Assembly (NCBI GenBank): GCA_010093705.1
Contig: MU006090.1
Coordinates: 2,162,022 to 2,226,021, forward strand
Direction: 5' to 3'
Length of the DNA stretch: 64,000 bases
From: Patellaria atrata CBS 101060
Lineage: Eukaryota
Part shown: in pieces, positions 4,553 to 63,301 of the stretch
Numbering within the stretch: the stretch's first letter is position 1
Layout: each line of letters begins with the position of its first letter
The notes under the pieces: model-generated
Databases searched by the model: none
What the model was told of the DNA's origin: nothing
What the model saw: the letters and a program-made list of their open reading frames with translations, nothing else
Program-made: the position numbers and the translations under genes

Positions 4553-5597
4553 ATGGGTTTCATTGATCTTCTATCCGATGCGGGCTTGACCCGTAAGTAC
4601 CTCGCTCATATAGACTTGATTGATAGCGTATATCCTACCATGGGGCATTTGCTAAGTACACGTCGATAGTACTCAACAACTGGGTCAAGACACGAAGCTA
4701 TATCATAGGGTGAGTCAAACTCTTCTTCGAAAGATTCCTCTTGTTCTTCCCCACTCTTTTATACTGTTATGATGAACAATATTCGTCCGTGTTTATGAGG
4801 CGGCTTAAGACCCCGCCGAATGATCTCAAACGTTGCGTAAACCGCACCTCTGACCCCTTTCCATTTCTGGAACTATTCAACATTGTATTGAAAGTCATCG
4901 TTTAGCAGTAAATCTAACAGGCTCGTAGATATGCCCCATCCCAAGCGGACGTGAAAGTCTATGAGGGTGTTAGCGCTCCTCCTCCAGTCGAGAAGTACCC
5001 ATTCGCATACAGATGGTGGAAGCACATCGACAGCTTCAAGTCCGAATTCTCTTCTCTACCGGGTGACCCATCCAAGGCCGCAGATGCGTATGGTCCCGAA
5101 CAGACTGAGCTACCTGTCAACCCCTCAAAGGCTCCCGCAGAGGCAGAGGATGACGAGGACGTCGATCTCTTCGGTAGTGATGATGAGGAGGAGGACGCAG
5201 AAGCTGCTAGGATCAGGGAGGAGAGGCTCGCTGAATACAAGAAGAAGAAGGAGGGCAAGATTAAGCCGGCAGCCAAGTCTATTGTCACTCTGGACGTCAA
5301 ACCTTGGGGTGAGTCATACCTCAATTCTCAAATCCAATCGAGGGTAAATTCTAACGTATCTGAACAGATGACGAGACCGATATGAAGGAGTTAGAGGCGA
5401 ATGTCCGTGGCATCGAGCAGGATGGCTTGGTCTGGGGTGCCAGCAAGCTTGTCGCCGTCGGCTTCGGCATCAAGAAGCTCCAGATTAATTTGGTCATTGA
5501 AGACGATAAGGTGTCTCTTGACGAACTTCAGAGCAAGATCGAAGAGTTCGAGGACCATGTCCAATCCACCGATGTTGCTGCCATGCAAAAGCTGTAG
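4553..5597 (+). CDS. EFB1: Translation elongation factor 1-beta; exons 4553-4592, 4670-4709, 4929-5308, 5368-5597
   Basis: [54 protein letters not shown] and [13 protein letters not shown] end. Canonical splice sites give one continuous frame. Confidence 0.96.
4765..4856 (+). ncRNA. snR18: Intronic box C/D snoRNA, U18/snR18 type
   Basis: Lies in EF-1beta intron 2 (4710-4928). Box C ATGATGA 4769-4775; guide GTCCGTGTTT 4785-4794 followed by D' ATGA; internal stem GGCGG/CCGCC; box D CTGA 4850-4853. The guide matches the U18 antisense element, and yeast snR18 is also hosted in the EFB1 intron. Confidence 0.85.
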
Positions 5598-21533: not shown

Positions 21534-23405
21534 ACGTAAAGCACCACCGAGTGTCGCACACCACCGAGTGTCGCAGAATTTCTTGGCACGAACAACTTAT
21601 TGTAGAGAACATTAAATTAATCGCTATCAAATAGAGAACCTGCGTAACCTGTACTCGTATCGGATTCAGAAGTCTCTTCTGAATCCTTTTTACATGTTCG
21701 AGCGTTATGTCCAGTCCCTTCGCAGTTCCCACAGCGCCGTATAGCTGGTTGGGCTGTTTCATGACCATCGCCACCTCGAGCCTTCTTTGATCGCTGAGAC
21801 GCCGCAGACGCCTCAGTAGCTACCTTCGCTGACGCCTCACCATACTCTATTGTACCGCCGTGCTGAATCCGCTTCCGTTTGCGCGTTTTCCTCTTAGTTA
21901 TTACTGCCAATTGCTCTTCAAGCTCAGCAATGCGGGCGCCCATAAGCGCGCTCCCATGCATCATCAATTCAGCTCCTTTTACGAGCTGTACAAGCCCAGA
22001 CTGAGCTGTAGTAGGCCATCTAGTAATAGAATCCCGTACGAGCTTTGATTGCGATCCAAATTCAAGCGTGTTACTTGGAGTCTTTGATTGCCACGGCGTC
22101 TGTAGTGGTAGGGGTTCTAATGGGGTGCGTAGGCGTACTTCAAGGCGATCTAGCACTACCTGCGCGTTGATAGGGACAAGGCCTGATGCCTCAAAGGCTT
22201 TGCGACAGTTCTCCTCTGTAAATACGTCAAAAAACGCGTCCTTGAAGGCTGGTAGGAAGCCCTCTTTGTTGATATGGAAGACGCGCCGGCGTGCCAAGTC
22301 TCGAACGCGCTGGGAGTACTTGCGCTTTAATGGCAAAAAGCAGACTACGTCAAGTGGTTGGAGTATATGCGATGAGTGAGGAGGTATACAGAGCGTTAAG
22401 ATCTTGTTCTCTAGGCAGTAATCCTTGAAATCCTGGTTAAGGTGGCTCTCATGGCCGTCGAGGATAAGCAGCCGGTATACCCCTACCGTACGCGCCTTTG
22501 TATGCGCGTCAAAGTGCTTCAACCACTCAAGACCAAGCGCGTTATTTGTCCAGCCGTTCTCAGAGACTGAGATCTTCCAGTTGCGCGGTATATCTGTCTN
22601 NNNNNNNNNNNNNNNNNNNNNNNNNNNNNNNNNNNNNNNNNNNNNNNNNNNNNNNNNNNNNNNNNNNNNNNNNNNNNNNNNNNNNNNNNNNNNNNNNNNN
22701 NNNNNNNNNNNNNNNNNNNNNNNNNNNNNNNNNNNNNNNNNNNNNNNNNNNNNNNNNNNNNNNNNNNNNNNNNNNNNNNNNNNNNNNNNNNNNNNNNNNN
22801 NNNNNNNNNNNNNNNNNNNNNNNNNNNNNNNNNNNNNNNNNNNNNNNNNNNNNNNNNNNNNNNNNNNNNNNNNNNNNNNNNNNNNNNNNNNNNNNNNNNN
22901 NNNNNNNNNNNNNNNNNNNNNNNNNNNNNNNNNNNNNNNNNNNNNNNNNNNNNNNNNNNNNNNNNNNNNNNNNNNNNNNNNNNNNNNNNNNNNNNNNNNN
23001 NNNNNNNNNNNNNNNNNNNNNNNNNNNNNNNNNNNNNNNNNNNNNNNNNNNNNNNNNNNNNNNNAATCGAGGTCAAGAATATATCGGACGATCGTTTGCT
23101 CTTCGGTCGCGGTGAGCTTCTGGCAATTAGGCTGGCAATTGGCTCGGGCGAGGGTTTGGTTGTATCTTCGCTGAAGCTTTCGTGGGCACGCGTTATACGC
23201 GGCGGCGGCGCGTCGTAGGCTTCGAAATTGGCCTTCCTTATAGGCTTGAAGTGCAAGCTCTATTCGGCCTTCTTGTTGAGCTTTATTATCTTGTTGTTGT
23301 TGAGACATTTCGTGTTATAGTAGAGGTAATAGCTGCCAAGAAATTCTGCGACACTCGGTGGTGTGCGACACTCGGTGGTGTGCGACACTCGGTGGTGCTT
23401 TACGT
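21534..23405 (-). mobile_element. Full-length pogo/Fot1-family (Tc1-mariner superfamily) DNA transposon, 1872 bp including a 465-N gap
   Basis: TA target duplication at 21532-21533 and 23406-23407. TIRs at 21534-21588 and 23334-23405 begin ACGT and contain 17-bp direct repeats CACCACCGAGTGTCGCA. Confidence 0.95.
21617..23308 (-). CDS. pogo/Fot1 DDE transposase (middle hidden by N gap 22600-23064)
   Basis: N-terminal HTH (SLRRAAAAY), KLTATEEQTIVRYILDLD, SENGWT, LLILDGHESH, HSSHILQPLD and C-terminal CCHC knuckle CGNCEGTGHNARTC. Confidence 0.92.
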   Translation of the reverse strand: MSQQQQDNKAQQEGRIELALQAYKEGQFRSLRRAAAAYNACPRKLQRRYNQTLARANCQPNCQKLTATEEQTIVRYILDLDXXXXXXXXXXXXXXXXXXXXXXXXXXXXXXXXXXXXXXXXXXXXXXXXXXXXXXXXXXXXXXXXXXXXXXXXXXXXXXXXXXXXXXXXXXXXXXXXXXXXXXXXXXXXXXXXXXXXXXXXXXXXXXXXXXXXXXXXXXXXXXXXXXXXXXXXXXXXTDIPRNWKISVSENGWTNNALGLEWLKHFDAHTKARTVGVYRLLILDGHESHLNQDFKDYCLENKILTLCIPPHSSHILQPLDVVCFLPLKRKYSQRVRDLARRRVFHINKEGFLPAFKDAFFDVFTEENCRKAFEASGLVPINAQVVLDRLEVRLRTPLEPLPLQTPWQSKTPSNTLEFGSQSKLVRDSITRWPTTAQSGLVQLVKGAELMMHGSALMGARIAELEEQLAVITKRKTRKRKRIQHGGTIEYGEASAKVATEASAASQRSKKARGGDGHETAQPAIRRCGNCEGTGHNARTCKKDSEETSESDTSTGYAGSLFDSD

Positions 23406-39812: not shown

Positions 39813-42480
39813 TATTCGACCGCAGTGAGTGCCCTTTTCTTCGGGGTTGTACACTTGTGGTTGCGATACCCTTGCAGGCATCCCAACCTATCAGGATGGC
39901 ACGCTGATCAAAAAGAGTGGTGTCATCTGCATGACCCTTTGGGGAAGTGTATCCATTACGACGGACTGGTACAATTTTTGATTTCACATTCTCTGTGGGT
40001 GGCGCAGCCCAACGGTTTCAATCTGTAAAAAGCGACCATTCCGAGTCCCTGTGTACGGCCATCCGTAAGTTTTGCTTAACTGTTCTCTCTCCGGCTTATT
40101 CCTCTGCATCTTCGCTGATCACATTGAAGGACCAAGTTCGACGCATTTTCGCCCTGATATTCTACGCTGTTATCGATCAGTAATTCCGGCATCCACCACA
40201 ACACTATCCACCAGAACGACATCATCCACCAACGACATCATCCACCAACGACATCATCCACCAACGACATCATCCACCAACGACATCATCCACCAACGAC
40301 ATCATCCACNNNNNNNNNNNNNNNNNNNNNNNNNNNNNNNNNNNNNNNNNNNNNNNNNNNNNNNNNNNNNNNNNNNNNNNNNNNNNNNNNNNNNNNNNNN
40401 NNNNNNNNNGACATCATCCACCAACGACATCATCCACCAACGACATCATCCACCAACGACATCATCCACCAACGACATCATCCACCAACGACATCATCCA
40501 CCAAAGCATTATCCACCATAACATTATCCACCCACCTTTGATAGCACACACGATGACCCTCTAAGCTTGCATCAACCAATGACTATTCCACTATCTCAAC
40601 AAAGCCTGCTAGTCAGGGGTGGATTCATCCATTGAGAGGCCTTTTGTCTCCTAACACTGGTTAAAAGCTTATCTTCATCTTCTTGCGCTAACATTTGTGT
40701 AGATATTATACTCACTGACTCCTACACAGCTGTTCTCTATTTGGTATTCTTCCTAGTTCGCGAGAGCTCATTTTCTGTTGGATTTGCTGATAATTGAATA
40801 GAGACTTCGCTCTACTAACTCTTCTACTAACTGTTTCAACCTACTACTCTTGGGAATACCCGCAAGCTTCCAACCAGAATGGTACTGTACAACTAGTTTT
40901 TGTCTGATGGTGCTGATCTTGATACAGGTATTTCCAACTGTCTACTGCTTACTCTTACATTGTTATTTCTCTTTGGAAAAACTATGCAGCTCTTAACGCT
41001 TTTCTTGCAACTGATTTTCACCTGATTCCGCTTACATTGTACTATACAGATTTCGATTTTCTATTGGTTTTGGGTGAGAGTTGTAGTATGAGGAAGAGGA
41101 GGAACTCCAGCGAAGCTCAGCACCTGAACGCGGTGCTGGAGTCTAGTAGCCTTCTGAGGGTGAAGCTAAGATTGAGCTATTGGATTGAGGAGCCCATCTT
41201 CATACTTCCGACATCCCCATGCCACTGTCACGAACACTTTCTTCTATCTGCCGTCTCAACCAAGCATGGCAGGTTTCTATTATCTTCCTTTCTGTACAGA
41301 TTGGTCGAAATCTGGAAGTATTGTTATGCACTGTACTTTGAACATGTTGCTTCTCTTTTTCTTTTCCAAGAGTGAGTATTGTATTTCTTTCCACCTTTAG
41401 CGACGGTACAACCCATTGTGGGTTTGTTGATATGCTAATATGTGTACAGCACGGCAGACCTCTCGATACGCTTTAAGACACTTTCAGCATGTAGGTATTA
41501 TCCTTAACCAATGGGTTGCTCTCCATTCCGCTAGATAGGGCCTATTATGGTTTCCCCTGCTGATATGTGTACAGATCATTATTACACCACCATCACTATG
41601 GCTTCGACTGACATCTGGAGATTTTGACACAGGAGGTACTACTCTGACTCTCGCCCCTTTTCATTCCGCTAATTACTGATGCTGACATAATTCTTGCGGA
41701 CTACAGATTCATGATTAATACTTCCTTCGACGACGCTAAAGCCTCAAGTAGTACTGCGGTCTTGGTAGCCAGCCTTGCGTACAATTCTTGCCTGTGCACT
41801 TGAGTCATTGTTTAGAGCGGAGCCTTTCTGTACAGCTACTTCAGAGTTCTTTCGCGTACCAAGGCTCAGGCCTTCGCTTCCCTTCGCTTCCACAGATGGA
41901 GTCAAGTTTCCAATAATGGGTAGAGTGGATCAACCCATGTAAATTACGTTTTGATAGCAATTCAATGTATTATTCCACGGTTTACTCGACAAACTTTGCA
42001 ATCCGTGCCGATTCTTGCTTGAAACCTTGTACTGGTCCAGCACAGGGGTGCTTCGTCGCTGGCCTTGGCGCTAGAATAAAACTCCTCTCCCTCTCCCAAC
42101 TTCCTCTTTGATTTTCTTTGGGATGCCTGCAAGCTCCTACTCCCACCCACAAGTGTACAACCCATTGTGGTTGTTTTATTATGCTAACATGTGTACAGTA
42201 CAAGCTACAGATCACATCGGCCCTTTTGGAACTTTTCGAGATTGTAAGTATTATCCTTAACCAATGGGTTGGTCGCCACTTCCCGGTTATTGTACCCCCT
42301 TCCCTTTTCCTTTGTTTTGCTTGAGAGTATGACAGTGTACGAGGAAGAGGAGGAACTCCAGCGAAGCTCAACACCTCAACGTCGGTGCTGGAGTCTAGTA
42401 ACTTTCTTCTCGAAAGTGAAGCTAAGATTGAGCTATTGAGTTTTGTCGTTGTTTATGTCGCTAGTGTACTTTTAGATAGG
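39745..42480 (+). ncRNA. Putative multi-intron long non-coding transcript
   Basis: At least 10 plus-strand donor/branch/acceptor sets with short exons, e.g. 39825-39915, 40065-40129, 40744-40801, 40882-40927, 41372-41449, 41491-41574, 41636-41706. No convincing ORF or protein similarity. Confidence 0.45.
40216..40503. repeat. 16-bp minisatellite (ACGACATCATCCACCA)n, spanning a 100-N gap
   Basis: Perfect tandem copies on both sides of N run 40310-40409; degenerate copies at 40190-40215 and 40504-40533. Confidence 0.95.
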
Positions 42481-50815: not shown

Positions 50816-53800
50816 ATGCACCCTCTAAATCCATTCTTGCGGGCCTTCTTCAGAAGCACACTTCCGTCCCAGTGCTCGCCCGCAGCTCATCACGTATGCA
50901 TCCTGAAGCTTATTGCTTTCCTGGTGACCTGTTAACGTAATATCCAGATCATCCTCGTCCCCACTACAGACGTCCTCTTAGCCTCTCGAGACCGTGAAAC
51001 TAACACATCCTATTACGACCTTTCGACCTCTGAAGAGTTCCTGGCAAGTCATGTTCTGCGTGCACCCGGAGGACTTGCGCCGCAGAGCCATAACAAAGAT
51101 GGATCGAACTTTCGGGATAATAGAGGGAAGGCAAAACAATATTCCACACTGAACGGGCGAACCGTCATTGTCAAAGATGCCTTCGTGTATAGCAACAAGG
51201 GTATGGAGAATTCCTTTACATTCTTGATTATCATCTAATCTACGTGATAGGGTTCAAATCCTTGAATCAAGCTCAGCTGCTACACGATGTTATCTACTAT
51301 CCAGATACCATCGATGCCCAGCAATGGCTAGTATACTACATTTCACGGCCACTCATCGGCACTTACGACCCGGTAATAATTACTCCGGCTTCGATAACGA
51401 CGGACAGAACCTTGGAAAGAAGTGGACTTAAGTCTGAGCCGCGTAACCCGGGACCATCTGCCTCATACTCTCCGCGGAAGAAAGAGGTGAGGTCATTTAG
51501 TGACCTCCTGAACCATTTTCCTATGATCGCAAGACAGATGCACCCTGGCCTTGACCGACTGTTTAAGGAATTTAACAAAGAGCTTGAGAAGTCTATCCCG
51601 TTCTCCCAAGAGCGTTCCAGCACGCCCAAGCTCGCCCGACACAATTCAATCTCATCGGCGCACAGTCTTCCATTCTCTGTACACAGTAGCATATCAGGGA
51701 CATCATCGCATCATCCAACCTCGCTCATTATCGATGACGAGGAGGATATGATGCGAAAATCGCTTGAAACAGCTGTTACTGCCGCTATTGACTTATTCCA
51801 AATGGTAGATAAGCAGCAATTGTCCCTGCTAGGTGCGACTACTGATCTTACCGGGCCAATAGTAGAACGTATGATTGAACGGTATATAGTTGAACAGGTT
51901 CACTCAACACTTCTATTTCCACGAATCTGCTCCATTAGAAGATTTGATGATTTAGATTTAGAGGCACGCATAAGGCAGATGTCTGATATTGACATCTCAC
52001 AGGTCGGCATCACGATCGGGAATGGCCAAAGAGGGAAAAAGGAGTTAGCCATAAGACTTTCCAGGGGTGTTGATGTCTTTAAAAAGATGGCCGTTGCAGG
52101 AAGCCCACAAGAGATGGTAGAGATTTTACTTGAAACTCAGAAGCTTATAACTGCAGCTGAGCCAGTTGTTGACGCGAGCACCAACCGATCAGTCAATGGA
52201 AATACCCCTTCGACCTCAGAGAAGCAAGAACCAATGTTGACAATCAACGCGGATACCCTCGTGTCCTTACTGCTGGTTGTTGTTATACGAAGTCCGGTGA
52301 AGTATCTGCAAGCCCGACTTTCATACATGCGGCATTTCATCTTCATTGATGATGTTGAAAGCGGAGAAATGGGCTATGCGTTGAGTACTTTCGAAGCAGT
52401 CCTCTCTTATTTGTCACGGGACTCAGGACGACTAAGGAGATCGAGTCGAAGAAACAAGCGTCTGTGGCAAGCTGTACGGAAGGGCGATGTACCTGGAATA
52501 CGTAGTATGCTTGATCTAGATTATCCAAACTTTAGCGAGGATGCGGACGTTGACCATTTCGAGCTCAACGAAACCGAGGATATCATGTCCTTTACGACTG
52601 ATCCTCACAGCTTCCGATCTGATGATACCACCTTGAATGGAGCGTTCGGTAATGGATATGAGCACCGACCTAGCCCCCTAGCACATGTCTTTCCATTCCA
52701 ACGATGTCCGACGCCTCCTGTCTCACTGTCACGGCCGAAGGTGAAAAAGAGAGTGTCAATGGACACAGGGAGTATATCAAGCTCATCTATGATATCCTTC
52801 AGATCTCGGACGAATACGATTGAATCTAACGTTAGCGGCATGGAGACAGACACCTCTGTAGAGACCTTGACCCAAACCCAAGGCTTGAATGGCGAGTCTC
52901 TCCTGATGATGGCCGTTGAAAGTGGCCAGGATAATGCTCTTTCCTTTCTATTAAGTCTAGACCAATATTTCTCTCCAAACTTTGTTCCCGATGACTGTAA
53001 TAATGAAGGTTCAACACTGTTTAGTACAGCGGTTCAACTTGGGCATCGAAAGGTAGTAGAGATTTTGTTAGACTACATTATCGATCATCTGGATTCTCCA
53101 GACGCCCTTCGAAATTACTTTGCGATACGGGATTCTCGGGGACGGTGCGTTGCTCATTACCTCTTTAATCAACCTCATCTTATAGGGAAGATTGGTCACC
53201 TGCTTCCCTGGCGATTGCGAGACAAAAACGGACAAACACCCCTTTTCGCGCTCATCCGATCCTACGACCATGATGAATATAAGGCAATGGTTGAAAGCGC
53301 ACTATCCGCTGCCCTCGATACGCAAGGCGATGATAGCGCTCTCCACTTAGACGATCACGTTGACGGCAAGCGAAATACCTTATTACATGCGGTCAACGAC
53401 CCTCAGATTGCATTAAGGCTCTTATACCACTGTGACTCAGACCCCAACGCGGCAAATGACCGTCAGTTTACGCCTCTCATGGTTGCAAGCAAATACGGAA
53501 GAACAGATATCGTCCGTGTCCTGTTTGGAGATGCCCGGGTTGATCTTTTGGCAAGGGACCTTAGAGGTTTAACCGCCGTTGAACTGGCCAAAGACGATGA
53601 GGTTCGCAATCGGATAGATGATCTAGTACTTTTATCCTCCTCATCTGGCCCTGACGGGCGGACAACCACTGTCGTACGATCTTTCTTTGTGGAAGACGGG
53701 TCAGTTAGGCTTGTGATCAAATCCGGTGCCCCAAATACAAACTCCACAATTACGGTTACGACTTGTCGGCGTTCGTTTACGGACTTTGAGAATCTTGCAC

Positions 53801-54783
53801 GGTGGCTTGCCCTGGAACATCCAGCGTCATGGCTACCTCCTGTAGCAGATTTCCTTTCTCCATTCTTGATCCCATCCAAACCTTCACGATCTGTGCTTCG
53901 CGACATGCAGCTTCGTCTTGATAGCTTTCTTAAAATTCTCCTGTCTCATCCAACCTTTGCAACCCATGAGATGGTCTGGGAATTCTTTCTTGTTCCAGAT
54001 ATAGATCCCACCATGCTTGCTGAACGGAGCAAGATGAAAGCAGAGGCCCGTGCCGACCGCGTAAAAGACGAATATACGCCAGTATCAGATGTACGAGACG
54101 TTGAGTTGTTTGTCGCACATGCTAAGGAGTCTATGCGAGGAGTACATCAAGCTACAAAGGGAATCCTACGTCGGACGAATAAAGTCCGTGTTGCAGCCAG
54201 TGATCTGGGTGACGCCGCGCTCATGGCATGCAATGCGCTGTCTACTCTCAATTTCATACCAAGAACTTACATCACAGCCCTAGATCGCCATGCTAAGATT
54301 ATCATGCCAAGCGAATCGTCCCCGATTGTGGACTTCTACTATAATATACATGCAATTAGTACCTGTAGTTCAGCACTCCTAGCGGCACTAAACCGCCCGT
54401 CCGCTCTAATCGGCTCCATGTCTTCCTCGCAAAAAGCAATCGATCGCCAAATGCTTTCTGTGCGGCGCAATGATAGATGGCCTTTAGGACTCATGGACGA
54501 GACGCGACACAGAATGCAGCGTGAGGCAGCTGAAAAGGTCCACAAAGCTGCCACCGAATTGGATAACTTGGGTAAAGAACTCAGATATACGCAACAAGTT
54601 GTTGCAGGTGAGCTTGCTAGTTGGCAAGATAGGAGAATAGAGATGGGCCGTAAAGCGGTTAGGGAGTTCGCGAAGCGCATGGTTGTTGTGGAAAAAGCGA
54701 AGCTGGAAAGTTTGAGGCGGACGTTAAGGGGCCTACATAATGGGGAGGACAATGGAGACGTCTATAAGAGCACGATCAAGTGA
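50816..54783 (+). CDS. VPS9 GEF + ankyrin repeats + PX domain protein (UPF0507/Vrl1-like); exons 50816-50893, 50948-51200, 51251-54783
   Basis: MHPLNPFLRAFF start; VPS9 INADTLVSLLL...GEMGYALSTFEA; ankyrins (GQTPLFAL, FTPLMVASKYGR); PX RRSFTDFENL...HPTFATHEMVWEF; coiled C-terminus. Confidence 0.9.
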
Positions 54784-55113
54784 TAATGAAGGGACAAAGT
54801 AGGTATAATGGTAATTGAAGAAGCGCCCGTGCGGACATGCAAGACATTGCATTATGGGTGTAGAGTATAGCTGGCGTTGGGTGGGCCTTAGTGAACACCC
54901 AAGGGTATAGGTTGACATATCCTTTGATTTACTTCGAGTAGAACGCTTGCTGTTGTATGAATATTAAGTTATCTTTCTATAGGTAGCATCCAAAGTTCCC
55001 TCAAGTGTAGACAATTGTCGGTAAGACTAAAAAGAAATATCACCAATCTCCAGCGGGCATTCAGCCTAATTCAATCTATGTTCTACATTCTATACTCTAC
55101 ATTCTTGAGAGCC

Positions 55114-55120
55114 AAAAAAA
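55114..55120 (-). terminator. Pol III oligo-T terminator of the tRNA-Trp gene
   Basis: T7 run on the minus strand, 22 nt downstream of the discriminator base. Confidence 0.75.
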
Positions 55121-55141
55121 GACCCAAGAAACAAAATTAAT

Positions 55142-55278
55142 TGAGGATGATGTGATTTGAACACATAGCCTTCAGGAAATCCCATATTACTGGAATCTGA
55201 CGCCTATCACCTTAGTTAGTTACGACCTGTTGCAAGAAAGAATGAATTAAACATACGCTACCATTGCGCCACACCCCC
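55142..55278 (-). tRNA. tRNA-Trp: tRNA-Trp(CCA) with two introns: a 53-nt spliceosomal-type insert 55256-55204 (between positions 23 and 24) and a 12-nt canonical intron 55189-55178 (37/38)
   Basis: Minus strand reads GGGGGTG TG GCGC AATGGTA GC[53 nt]GC G TCAGA TT CCA G[TAATATGGGATT]T CCTGA AGGCT ATGTG TTCAAAT CACAT CATCCTC A. This gives a 72-nt cloverleaf with intact A and B boxes and one A31.C39 mismatch. Confidence 0.9.
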
Positions 55279-55980
55279 AAGACGATAATTCTTTGAGCGG
55301 GGTAAATAATATATTTAAAATTTATTTTGGCTGAAACCGGATATCAAAGCAATCCTAAACTGCTCTACTTCGAGTAGGATCCCGGTTATCAGGGCGATTA
55401 TATAATAAGGAAGACCTCACCTTAGCACCACCAGGTAGGATTTTACTGATTTGTAATAAATTCTACACTTCTACAGGGCATTCATCAAAACTCCCTCTGT
55501 CTGATTACGCAAACATTCCCTTACAATAGGTCTAACATTGAATACGGGCTCCTAGTCCTAAAGGTTCCTACTGATTACCCGCTTTCAGAATGTCTTTTTA
55601 CAAGAAGGAAATTGTTCTCGATAATAATCACAATGCAGTGTGGATGATGCTCAGCCCCCAACACACCTACGGCTAGATCATGCAGCTTCCTCTGTTCAAA
55701 GAGGGATTTCTAGAGCTGATTCGTTGCTCCTCGAAGCAGGAGTATCGCTCAGGGGTTTGTCAGGTTGGAGATCTGTGCTGCTGCGCCGATGGATCAAGCA
55801 GAGGCTCCGTAGCCAATTTTCCTTTAACCGCGATACTTGACTTCAAAGGTAGCATAGAAGAAAAATATATTTGAAGAGGTTCAGGGAAGCTGTTTATATG
55901 GTAACAACTTGAGGTAATTCTATGACTTCGAAATCTCCTAGTCCTATCGTTAATATAGTGACGCAGGGCTTCTCTACATC

Positions 55981-58900
55981 ATGTCCGGATTCTTCCTTCA
56001 GAAAACGACACCGGCCGCAATTCACGCCGTAGCAGAGTCAAACTTCTCTTTAAACCACATGAACTTTGACTTCTCGTTGATCAAAATGAATTATCCCGTA
56101 GAGCTTCAACCATTGGAAAACCTCCTCTCCAGCCAACGTCGCGCCTCAGCAGAGAACGGATATTTCCATATTCTGGCTCGAAGGCTAGGAGCTTTAATTG
56201 ATGATGTTCTTCCCGAAGTGCCGGTTCTGCTCAAGGCTTACGGTACCCGGGCGAGCGAAATAGCGCAGAACGCATCGGTTGCCCAAGGGAAGTCAAAAAG
56301 CATTGTAGAGGGCCTTTTCGCGACTCAGATAGGCGTCGACAGTACTACGATAGGGGTTACAGCGACTAGCGGGATGTCTGCTCTTCGGATGCATCTTCTA
56401 GCATGTTTACTAGCCAGGGTTTGGTCTCCTCAAAAAGCAACTGCTATATGCTTGAGCTTGTTCAGTATCGTCAGAAGACAATCATACAGTCCGCTGAAGA
56501 TGAAGGGATGATAAATAATTCTATGGCATACGCGGCCGCTTCACAGATTATCGATATAGCGGTCCTTGCTGAGTGAGATGCGAGCGCAAGAGCATGGCTT
56601 GAGATTGCTGATCGAGCAAAAAGAAAACAGCAAATTCAGGCAAAACTGGTCGTTGACAATTTATCTGCTTGGTAAAACAGATTGCGGAGCATGAGATTCC
56701 ATCGACATCTAAAGAGCAGTTCAAAGACGACCTATATCGTAACATCATCTCAAACTTCATCTTAGCCCTTTCAACAATGGAGAAGCTTGTGAAGGGTCAA
56801 CCGCAAAGAATTCAGACAGGAGGTGTTCTCCTGGCTTTTCTTTCCTGGCACATCTATCCCGATCTTGTGGTATTAGGCATGAAGACCACCGATATTGTTC
56901 AAGCGGATTCGCTTGTCAATTCGGGGGGTGTTATCACAATCGCAATCGCTGGGCATGACCCAAATCCAAGAGGAGATTCTAATGAATTGCCTTGGGCGTA
57001 CTGCTCGCTATCACTTTCAAGCATCAGATACTATGGTCTCTACGCCGGGATGAGAACGAGTACATTCGACTCCACACGACTCTCAATTACTCAACTACAA
57101 CTAGTCGCTTTTGGAAGTTTTATGAAACCGGCTTGCGTGACTGATCTTATCTTGTATGCCAAGATTATCAGGAGAATTTATACCGTACTTTACAGTGAGC
57201 TTCTATTGGAGGCAAAAGGTATAAAAGCTAAGAACATGTGTACCATCAAAGACCTGGACGGCCGCCTTGATACTGTCATATTGGCTGCAGAGGATACATA
57301 TCATGAACCGCATAACTGTCTATCTAGGGCGAAAATCGATGTTCTAAGGTTACTCCATGGGTTTCGACAAGGGTTGAACTTTCTTCTTTCGGATGATGCT
57401 CATGAACTAGCTGAAGCAATGAAATTAGTGAATTACGGGGTTCGTCATGCTTATGGATGGTTGGGAAATGATGAGGGGAGATCCATAACTGATGTATTGG
57501 GCCTCTCCGATATTAGTAAAGTTTTGCCAGCGGTCAAAACACCTAAGTCCAGGGTAGAAATACTGCGATCTCTCTATCACCGATACGAGGGGACTCTGAT
57601 ATAGCTGTTATTCGTTACCGTCCGAACGAAGGGGGTGGGGGTTATACGAGCGCCAACTCAACCACCGACACAGTCACGGACGGATGATATGAGTTCTTCA
57701 AGGGCATCAAGAGAAAGAGAAGCAGCGATGCTGACGAAATCCATCCCGACGAAACTCCCAACAAACGAGCTTGCCTGGAGGAAGTTACTAGCATTGAGCC
57801 CCCGTGGAACTAAGATTGGGTTTTCATGCAAACTCAACAGCCCACGTTTTCACATAGTCCCAACAGACCTATGAATGAAGCAGAGCTCTTCGAGACCCTG
57901 ATAGAGGAAGGTGGACATGGTTTTGAAGATAAAGAAATGGTATTCCATGACTTCTTTTATGGGAATCCGACTTTTGCGGCTGTTTATCGCGTTAGAAATG
58001 GCAACAGTTATACTCTGGATCAGAAGCATAGCATGGACGAGGCTACTATCCTCCCATTAAATATGCTTGATCACCTTCTTGGATACAGATATGTTGGATA
58101 TGGAGACGCTTTCCATTACGATTATGAGCTTCATGCGTAAACAGGACCGCATCAAAACTTCTTTACGTTTATTCGGACGGATTTCCGCATATTACGAGGA
58201 GTACCTACCAGAAGCAACCGTCTCAATGCGTGCCATCACAAGGTCCATATATCAAAACGATTTTGCTAGTGGAGTGCTCAGCGGACTAGAAGGCCCTACT
58301 GATCTAGAGCATATCCACACCAAAGAGAACCGGAGTGACCCAGAGGTCAGAATATTTTCGAGACCATTGACAAGCACCCAAGCATTCTTGTGTATTCTGT
58401 ATTTTGAATCTGGAACAATTAGCGCGTTAGAGGAAAAACTAGAAAGGGTTATGTCTATTTCAAGCTAGAACTCGTTGTTTGTAGCGAAGAAGCTCCTGAG
58501 TGATCCATTTCCACAACAAAATATAAGTAACGATGCAGTCGAACATGTGGTAGGGAATGTGGGAAAGCAAGGTATAGCGCTACTGGCTCCCCCAGAAAAA
58601 CCTGAAGTGCGGCAGCATGCGATTGGAGAATGGCATTACAGCACTCATACCAGATTCGATGGCTTAAAGGGGAGCGGGCTTTTTGATGACACGTCATTAC
58701 ACCTTTCCTTTACAGGCTACGAGGTACCGTTGCAACTTGGGAGCAATAACATCCGCGGGAAAGAGGCGTACTTCCTGGAGACCAGGCTAGCGTTGAATGA
58801 TAAACATCATTGGGTAGGTGACCTGGATATTCTCAAAGCCCTCGACGACATCAAGACCGTAAAAGGCTTAGGAGCAGTGTCAGGGTTGTGCGGTCACGAT

Positions 58901-61594: not shown

Positions 61595-63301
61595 ATGGTG
61601 TCGTTGAGAAACAGCATGGAATGGGAGTACGAGATACCCTTTAAGGTACACTACTGTGGATAGGACGCCCCCCTTCCTGTCTAATGTCTTTTCACGTATT
61701 ATAGCTCAAGGATCCTAGCCTTCTTCGTCAGAGATCTTACGTGGATGGTGAATGGGTAGATGCTCAATCAGGAAAATGCTTCGACGTGATTGGTCAGTCC
61801 TTGATACCCATTTCCAGAATACAACCACATACGAACCGTTCCTCACTTCTTGACTTGACCTTGCAGACCCGGGCACCGGGAAACATTGGGCATCTGTAGC
61901 CGACAACGATCCTTCTGATGTGAACGCTGCGGTGGAATCATCCTATGCCGCATTCCAAACCTATCGTCGAATAAACCCGAAAATCCGGGCGAAGCTCCTT
62001 CTCAGATGGAATGATCTCATTACCGAAGCGAAAGAGGATATTGCCAGAATCGTAACCTATGAGACCGGCAAACCCCTTGCGGAATCCCTCGCTGAGGTTG
62101 ACTACGCTCTAGGATTTACCTGGTTTTTCACGGGTGAAGCAGAACGGATTCACGGGACGGTTTCAGTACCTTCAGCACCAAATCGACGCAATTTCACGGT
62201 GAAGCAACCGATAGGTGTTGCTGTTGCGCTGGTTCCTTGGAACTTTCCCGTAGCCATGATATTGAGGAAGGCAGGGGCAGCATTAGCAGCAGGATGTACT
62301 ATGGTGATCAAGCCTAGTCCTGAAACGCCCTTGTCAGTGCTCGCACTTGTGCATCTCGCTTCTAGAGCTGGGTTCGAGAAAGGCGTTTTGAACGTGCTGA
62401 CGACAAGTTTGGAGAATACCCCAGCGTTGAGTGAGGCGCTCTGTAAGCATCCGCTGGTTTCAAAGGTAACGTTCACCGGAAGTACGAAGGTGGGAAAACT
62501 GATTGCTAGACATTGTTCCGAAGGGTTGAAGAAGGTGACGCTGGAGCTCGGCGGGAATTGTCCATTTCTTATCTTCGACGATGCGAATTTGAAACAGTCG
62601 GTGGACGCGTTGATAGCATTGAAGTGGAGGCATGCAGGTCAGGCATGTATCACCGCAAACAGGGTATATATCCAAAAAGGGGTGTTTGGCCAGGTGGAGC
62701 AGATGCTCATAGATGAGACGAGAAAGATTAAAGTCGGGCATGGGATTGAAACTGAAACTACCATGGGACCAGTTACGACGCCTAGGGGTATTGAAAAGGT
62801 GGAATGTCAGATTAAAGACGCACAGAAGCATGGCGGGACGGTCTTGACAGGAGGAAAGAAACCATATGGGTTACCGGGGTACTTTTTCGAGCCGACAATA
62901 ATCAGCAACATGAAGCCGGAGATGCTGATTTCGAGAGAAGAGACTTTCGGGCCTATTCTTTCACTATATAAATTCGAGACTGAGGATGAGGTGGTTGACC
63001 TAGCGAACAAAACTAGCATGGGTCTTGCAAGTTATTTCTTCACCAAGGACGTTGATCGTACCTGGCGGCTACTGGAAAATCTTGAAGCGGGAATGGTGGG
63101 TATGAATACCGGTATTTTCTTTTCTCCACACTCTCCTCCTTCTGCACTAAAACTTGTGCTCTAGGCCCGATGTCAGCCGCTGAATCACCATTTGGAGGTA
63201 TCAAGGAGTCTGGTTATGGAAAGGAATCTGGCAAAGACGTTGCGGTAGATGCTTATCTCATCACGAAGACTGGAACTATGACGCTTGAGGGACAGTACTG
63301 A
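61595..63301 (+). CDS. Succinate-semialdehyde dehydrogenase (NAD(P)+); exons 61595-61645, 61705-61792, 61867-63111, 63165-63301
   Basis: PWNFP, FTGST, LELGGN, AGQAC, EETFGP and SPFGGIKESGYG motifs. Alternative ATG at 61616. Confidence 0.9.

Follow-up and report, generated by a model that had tools for sequence, protein, structure and literature searches.

The closest described counterparts of the locus reported here are the introns of fungal U6 genes, which possess canonical 5' splice, branch and 3' splice sites within a Pol III-class gene for a small non-coding RNA (Tani and Ohshima 1989, 1991; Canzler 2016; all via PMC5855946). In S. pombe, for example, the sole U6 gene, which is of the Pol III class, harbours an intron which the spliceosome excises (PMC5855946). 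According to the same review of U6 introns, these introns are often species-specific and have been proposed to arise by reverse splicing followed by reverse transcription and recombination, what decides on their landing sites is unclear, and the non-coding hosts of spliceosomal introns that are listed comprise U6, U2, U5, U1 and rRNA (PMC5855946). Normal spliceosomal introns are likewise found in the fungal genes of the U3 snoRNA, another structured non-coding RNA, where they occur in the majority of the Pezizomycotina examined, among them Dothideomycetes, to which Patellaria atrata belongs, and have a conserved position in the 5' stem-loop and an average length of 92 nt (PMC5832005).

Two further systems are of relevance. 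Nuclear tRNA genes of Cyanidioschyzon merolae can contain more than one intron, including one in the D-arm; these introns form bulge-helix-bulge (BHB) motifs, are cut by the tRNA endonuclease, and the intron at position 37/38 is expected to be removed last (PMC3728597). Introner-like elements, on the other hand, are a source of recent spliceosomal intron gain in Dothideomycetes, and have been described as multi-copy, of greater length than regular introns and stably folded (PMC3609843, PMC4457414). Spliceosomal introns, as features of Pol II transcripts, and tRNA introns were treated as unrelated classes in a paper of 2025 (PMC12530127).

Here we describe a nuclear tRNA-Trp(CCA) gene that is interrupted in its D-stem by a 53-nt insert with the signals of an mRNA intron. 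The gene is situated in a 64-kb stretch of P. atrata CBS 101060 DNA, which was analysed as a whole and is referred to as the window in the following. Similar to the U6 introns, the insert has all three canonical splice sites and is located in a small gene of the Pol III class; unlike them, it is hosted by a tRNA, which is no component of the spliceosome, it shares its gene with a tRNA-type intron, and it is known from DNA sequence. It also differs from the widespread U3 introns in being a single case of 53 nt, from the D-arm introns of C. merolae in having GT, branch and AG signals instead of a BHB, and from introner-like elements in being short and unstructured. The insert would therefore belong to the known mRNA-type introns of non-coding RNA genes, in what appears to be a new kind of host. 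A sequence-only reading of the window knew of no such case described in a tRNA, and a full-text literature search agrees with this: spliceosomal introns were retrieved for U6, U1, U2, U5, U3 and rRNA hosts and none for a tRNA gene, in a search that left most subscription journals and all tRNA gene databases (for example GtRNAdb) outside its scope, so that an older report is possible. The reading that we favour, with a probability of roughly 0.45, is that the tRNA-Trp(CCA) gene gained a U2-type intron beside its intron at 37/38 and that this intron is spliced by the spliceosome to give a functional tRNA.

The tRNA-Trp(CCA) gene and its neighbourhood

The gene lies on the minus strand in a 1.2-kb gap that separates two plus-strand genes, and about 700 bp of upstream DNA are common to it and to the plus-strand gene starting at 55981. 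Among the protein genes of the window, the open reading frame at 51523-54783 (1086 aa) matches a VPS9-domain protein of Patellaria atrata CBS 101060 at 100% identity (next species 66%), and an aldehyde dehydrogenase reading frame shows 97% identity, in local alignment, to the P. atrata succinate-semialdehyde dehydrogenase (SSADH), three exon junctions of which thread exactly on the DNA. Two runs of N are present in the window, at 22600-23064 (465 bases) and 40310-40409 (100 bases). The tRNA-Trp gene is composed of the following elements:

55303-55313, minus: TATA-like element rich in A/T, at 25-35 nt upstream of the gene, with a putative function only
55142-55278, minus: nuclear tRNA-Trp(CCA) gene, 137 nt uncut and 72 nt without both intervening sequences (ARAGORN; Rfam RF00005)
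55257-55278, minus: exon 1, with the 5' strand of the acceptor stem, U8, the 5' strand GCGC of the D-stem, the D-loop, G22 and C23
55261-55271, minus: A box, within exon 1
55204-55256, minus: 53-nt intron of apparent spliceosomal type, between tRNA positions 23 and 24 in the 3' strand of the D-stem
55251-55256, minus: donor GTATGT (in agreement with GTRNGT)
55215-55220, minus: branch site ACTAAC (in agreement with CTRAY), within AACTAAC; the branch A is 55216 and lies 12 nt from the intron end
55204-55206, minus: acceptor TAG (in agreement with YAG)
55189-55203, minus: exon 2, with G24 and C25 of the D-stem, position 26, the 5' strand of the anticodon stem and the anticodon loop
55191-55193, minus: anticodon CCA, within exon 2
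55177-55188, minus: canonical 12-nt tRNA intron at 37/38 (ARAGORN, introns allowed)
55142-55176, minus: exon 3, with the 3' strand of the anticodon stem, the variable loop, the T arm, the 3' strand of the acceptor stem and the discriminator A
55152-55164, minus: B box, within exon 3
55132-55138 and 55113-55121, minus: downstream T runs (T4 inside the first, T7 inside the second), resembling Pol III terminators and presumed to act as such

But for the insert, the gene has the appearance of a functional Pol III unit. The A and B boxes follow the consensus of these elements, G1-C72 and A73, the eukaryotic identity elements of tRNA-Trp, are present, and no run of four or more T occurs inside the 137 nt of the gene; the insert itself contains no T run longer than three. 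The boundary of the 12-nt intron can slide by 1 nt, and its sequence includes TGG, which is complementary to the anticodon. The exons align with six eukaryotic tRNA-Trp genes among the listed matches of a metagenome contig scan (see below), where identity in the D-arm is given by construction, because the selecting pattern fixes the D-arm and leaves the rest free. At the base of the anticodon stem there is an unusual mismatch, A31.C39 (exon 3), which the gene shares with four of these six (L005, L102, L026 and L113), all of which are intact and also have its anticodon loop. Neither this alignment nor ARAGORN, which accepts the spliced product, reveals any decay of the exons.

The metagenome matches yielded several observations on other tRNA genes. 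Two of the eukaryotic tRNA-Trp genes (L005, L102) possess canonical introns of 28 and 37 nt and are followed 250-300 bp downstream by a tRNA-Arg(CCT), a pair that is conserved in some fungus-like genome. A eukaryotic tRNA family from seven contigs (L008, L022, L038, L051, L066, L076, L106) has canonical introns of widely varying length; three of its members are called tRNA-Arg(CCT) by ARAGORN, and with introns allowed several are misnamed as Leu, Pro or Ile and L066 is left uncalled.

The 53-nt insert and the mRNA introns of the window

The 53-nt string given in the sequence-only reading is the exact reverse complement of 55204-55256, and the donor GTATGT, the branch site ACTAAC with its A 12 nt from the end, and the TAG acceptor claimed for it are all present. 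Two other AG dinucleotides deserve mention. An AAG follows the branch A at a distance of 5 nt and would be too near to it for use as an acceptor. A CAG at 55197-55199 (minus), 7 nt into exon 2, could possibly act as a competing acceptor, the use of which would delete 7 nt of the tRNA.

To judge how specific these signals are, we counted all segments of 45-65 nt that start with GT[AG][ATG]GT, end with YAG and contain a CTAAC whose branch A lies 8-25 nt before the end. This strict test was passed by 4 of 2,685,690 segments on both strands of the window (about 1.5e-6 per segment), and two of the four are the insert itself and the 60-nt variant (55197-55256) that ends at the CAG in exon 2. The break in the tRNA coincides exactly with a strict-test segment and can hence not be put down to random insertion. 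A looser intron pattern, with 10 matches in the window compared to 13.1 in shuffled sequences, did not discriminate and was replaced by the strict count.

The insert is almost devoid of structure of its own. Its minimum free energy (MFE) is -1.8 kcal/mol (z = +1.91), none of 200 shuffled versions folds less well, and of six introns compared it has the least structure; its splice signals should therefore be accessible. A second copy was not found within the 64-kb window, and inspection of the insert ends by eye for a target-site duplication or terminal inverted repeats gave nothing convincing beyond a TAG..CGT microhomology. With a length of 53 nt, hardly any structure and a single copy in the window, the insert was rejected as an introner-like element. 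Taken by its sequence, it is with high probability a U2-type intron of the spliceosomal kind.

The mRNA introns of the window provide a local standard. Prediction from open reading frames proved too noisy for this purpose (6 candidates with strict flanks, 76 with loose ones), and annotated introns were instead obtained by threading two P. atrata proteins, VPS9 (P0001) and SSADH, on the DNA. Removal of the resulting five introns reproduces the proteins; those of SSADH were set by eye and verified by translation.

50894-50947: VPS9 intron, 54 nt, by protein threading
51201-51250, plus: intron 2 of the VPS9-ankyrin-PX gene, 50 nt, by exact threading of P0001
61646-61704: SSADH intron, 59 nt, by protein threading
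61793-61866: SSADH intron, 74 nt, by protein threading
63112-63164: SSADH intron, 53 nt, by protein threading

Introns of filamentous ascomycetes typically measure 50-60 nt and carry signals such as those of the insert. The insert had been said to match the mRNA introns of the window in both size and signals. For size this is borne out, as its 53 nt fall within the spread of 50-74 nt of the five annotated introns. As regards the signals, read by eye, none of the five starts with GTATGT and none contains CTAAC, so that the insert is closer to the consensus than all of them and its signals are the stronger ones.

The best match of the insert among 23 intron candidates (18 predicted, 5 based on annotation) is VPS9 intron 2, which is located 4 kb away on the opposite strand. 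The two align with 36 matches in 56 columns (score 14), have their last seven bases in common and share the spacing from CTAA to the intron end. The next-best candidate scores 4, the 105 pairings of 15 other short intron candidates give 9 at most, and a score of 14 is reached by 0.2% of shuffled sequences when donor and acceptor are kept and by 1% when the branch site is kept as well. The likeness hints at an intron transposition with VPS9 intron 2 as its source; we regard it as suggestive only, because it was found after looking, while browsing. The exon that follows VPS9 intron 2 (51251-51261, plus) has a B-box-like start and a 9-mer in common with the T-loop region of the tRNA-Trp; since this stretch encodes Gly-Phe-Lys-Ser, the resemblance is probably a coincidence.

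Excision, maturation and alternative explanations

Deletion of the 53-nt insert alone is sufficient for ARAGORN, with introns allowed, to report a tRNA-Trp(cca) whose 12-nt intron occupies the canonical site. After deletion of both intervening sequences, default ARAGORN identifies the 72-nt product as tRNA-Trp(cca), and the energy of its cloverleaf equals the MFE (-21.3 kcal/mol). The sequence-only reading had maintained that removal of the insert rebuilds the GCGC/GCGC D-stem and yields a cloverleaf of 72 nt; the D-stem and the tRNA call hold, the length of 72 nt additionally needs the loss of the 12-nt intron. Excision in register +1 gives a product identical to that of register 0, and excision in register +2, which removes an AT..GC segment, leads to a single difference (U25 for C25, i.e. 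a G10.U25 pair in the D-stem) and to a product still called tRNA-Trp. GT-AG ends are obtained in register 0 only. In silico, the use of the canonical mRNA-type signals would restore a conserved tRNA, as in the other non-coding hosts.

BHB introns are characterised by a central helix of 4 bp flanked by 3-nt bulges and outer helices, and the registers were screened by a coded version of this rule. The insert was rejected as an intron of the tRNA type, cut by the endonuclease, owing to its position at 23/24 instead of 37/38 and to the lack of a BHB in any valid register.

Neither default ARAGORN nor Rfam at gathering thresholds found a tRNA in the window, as had been anticipated for standard tRNA finders. 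That expectation is borne out only in part, because of permissive Infernal, which detects RF00005 at 55142-55278 (minus) with 37.8 bits, above the Rfam gathering score, by skipping 80 nt; ARAGORN with introns allowed gives a mis-folded call for the uncut gene. Elsewhere in the window, 4764-4832 (plus) resembles SNORD18, a C/D-box snoRNA family, with 27.4 bits (E 0.69), which is below the gathering score of 41; its alignment includes motifs resembling a C box and a D box, and it may be a divergent fungal snoRNA.

According to the favoured reading, the tRNA-Trp gene would be transcribed from its intact A and B boxes, the spliceosome would act in the nucleus, cut out the 53-nt intron at GT/AG and thereby rebuild the GCGC/GCGC D-stem, and the tRNA splicing endonuclease would take out the 12-nt intron only afterwards, to leave a working tRNA-Trp. 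Two unrelated splicing machines, the spliceosome and then the tRNA endonuclease with its ligase, would act in series on a single tRNA, a tentative scheme to which we give rather less than even odds. The order proposed follows from the properties of the yeast-type endonuclease, which recognises the mature domain in its folded state and makes contact with the D-arm (PMC3728597) and should therefore act only after the D-stem has been rebuilt. That a Pol III product can be handled by the spliceosome is evident from the sole U6 gene of S. pombe (PMC5855946). In the predicted fold of the precursor, however, the donor's leading GU is able to pair into the D-stem. Pre-tRNAs are short-lived and are made without the Pol II coupling that helps splicing, and this counts against a maturation by the spliceosome.

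The intron itself may have originated from an excised mRNA intron, possibly VPS9 intron 2, that was reverse-spliced into a tRNA-Trp transcript; the resulting RNA would then have been reverse transcribed and have recombined into the gene, along the path put forward for the U6 introns of fungi (PMC5855946). The precise GT..AG limits of the insert, the lack of a target-site duplication and the likeness to a nearby intron together fit such an origin by reverse splicing.

The strongest competitor of the favoured reading is that the gene is a dead or dispensable copy, recently inactivated, whose Pol III transcript is left unspliced, or spliced in traces only, and whose task is performed by intact tRNA-Trp copies elsewhere. 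We consider this a real possibility, to be credited with about one chance in three. Genes for fungal tRNA isoacceptors are usually multi-copy, no orthologous or second example of the insert was seen in the collections scanned, and a recent insertion would account for perfect exons and perfect signals without selection. It is also in accordance with a dead copy that the native intron has no advantage over 300 shuffled introns in allowing the tRNA to fold correctly within the precursor (fraction of shuffles at least as good 0.50), so that there is no sign of the intron adapting to its host. Against it stand the signals of the insert, which surpass those of all five annotated local introns, and the consideration that an intron which entered by reverse splicing would find itself in surroundings that chemically permit the forward reaction. 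A further argument depends on the likeness to VPS9 intron 2. If this reflects descent, the divergence amounts to about 36% and the copy would be old, and a neutral pseudogene of 72 nt should have been damaged, which is not seen; undamaged exons together with strengthened splice signals would then point to selection and hence to function.

Splicing by the spliceosome could alternatively be a matter of Pol II, to which splicing is normally coupled: a minus-strand read-through or non-coding transcript would be spliced co-transcriptionally and the tRNA freed by RNase P and RNase Z. The setting within the 1.2-kb gap, where about 700 bp of upstream DNA also belong to the gene that starts at 55981, would be suitable for such a transcript. 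As no minus-strand gene is evident beside the tRNA-Trp and its two boxes, A and B, its TATA-like element and its T runs are in keeping with a normal Pol III unit, this route appears improbable.

More improbable still is a removal by proteins alone, that is, by tRNA endonuclease and ligase at a non-canonical site, perhaps in register +2. Such a route has a precedent in the ectopic D-stem and D-loop introns of nuclear tRNA genes in C. merolae (PMC3728597), and register +2 does give a valid tRNA, with flanking pairings of 3/4 (h) and 4/4 (h'). The central helix H, however, forms 3/4, 0/4 and 2/4 pairs in registers 0, +1 and +2, and hence a 4-bp helix in none of them, the insert is essentially unstructured, and the mature domain is what the yeast-type enzyme measures from, with contacts to the D-arm (PMC3728597). 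In addition, the consensus GT, branch and AG would be left as a coincidence of the order of 1e-6.

An artefact of assembly or contamination, for which the two N gaps of a draft assembly might be quoted, has next to no likelihood, given that contigs of 32 kb and 27 kb, built independently from the raw reads of two runs, contain the insert and cover 53500-57000 with 0 differences and no joints, and that the flanking genes are 100% (VPS9) and 97% (SSADH, local alignment) identical to annotated P. atrata proteins. Reads exposing the insert as an assembly artefact had been named as a refutation of the sequence-only reading, and the contigs speak against such an artefact; both runs derive from one sample, probably of DNA and probably the assembly's own source, and are therefore no independent biological support.

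Further examples and implications

Orthologous inserts were sought in sequence collections that include few or no relatives of P. atrata, whose lineage is an isolated one. A scan of metagenome contigs for the 5' half of the gene followed by GT is poorly specific and returned at least 119 matches at no fewer than 117 loci; those listed are mostly chance matches or other tRNAs with a D-stem that ends in GT. Among the 119 listed, none has a Patellaria-like insert, and two (L010, L048) show GT[AG]NGT after AGC, neither of which becomes a tRNA with any deletion of 20-150 nt. A pattern of two halves with a gap had no match in contigs of prokaryote genomes, and the junction pattern had four in viral contigs, none of them relevant (one intact phage tRNA-Thr and three stretches without a tRNA).

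One metagenome match is peculiar in its own right. At about 300 in L098, the anticodon loop of a bacterial-type tRNA (Ala, GGC according to ARAGORN) is apparently interrupted by about 105 nt, within which lies another complete tRNA that has this anticodon as well. The outer tRNA occurs in intact form in L009, L017, L027, L044, L067 and L080.

Should the tRNA-Trp gene be a dead copy, the find would be a smaller one, yet would still document the precise insertion of an mRNA-type intron into a tRNA gene. As a footprint of transposition by reverse splicing the insert would be a clean one, with a candidate source at a distance of 4 kb. A tRNA as host would extend the list of non-coding hosts to the most abundant product of Pol III, and the locus would offer a natural substrate for asking if splicing needs Pol II. 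If two machines do act in series on this tRNA, the spliceosome engages pre-tRNAs in both directions, in by reverse splicing and out by forward splicing. Since default tRNA finding missed the gene, counts of fungal tRNA genes may hide such cases, and if the scheme of two machines in series is true, similar intron-bearing tRNA genes would sit unseen in fungal genomes, skipped or mis-called by the standard finders.
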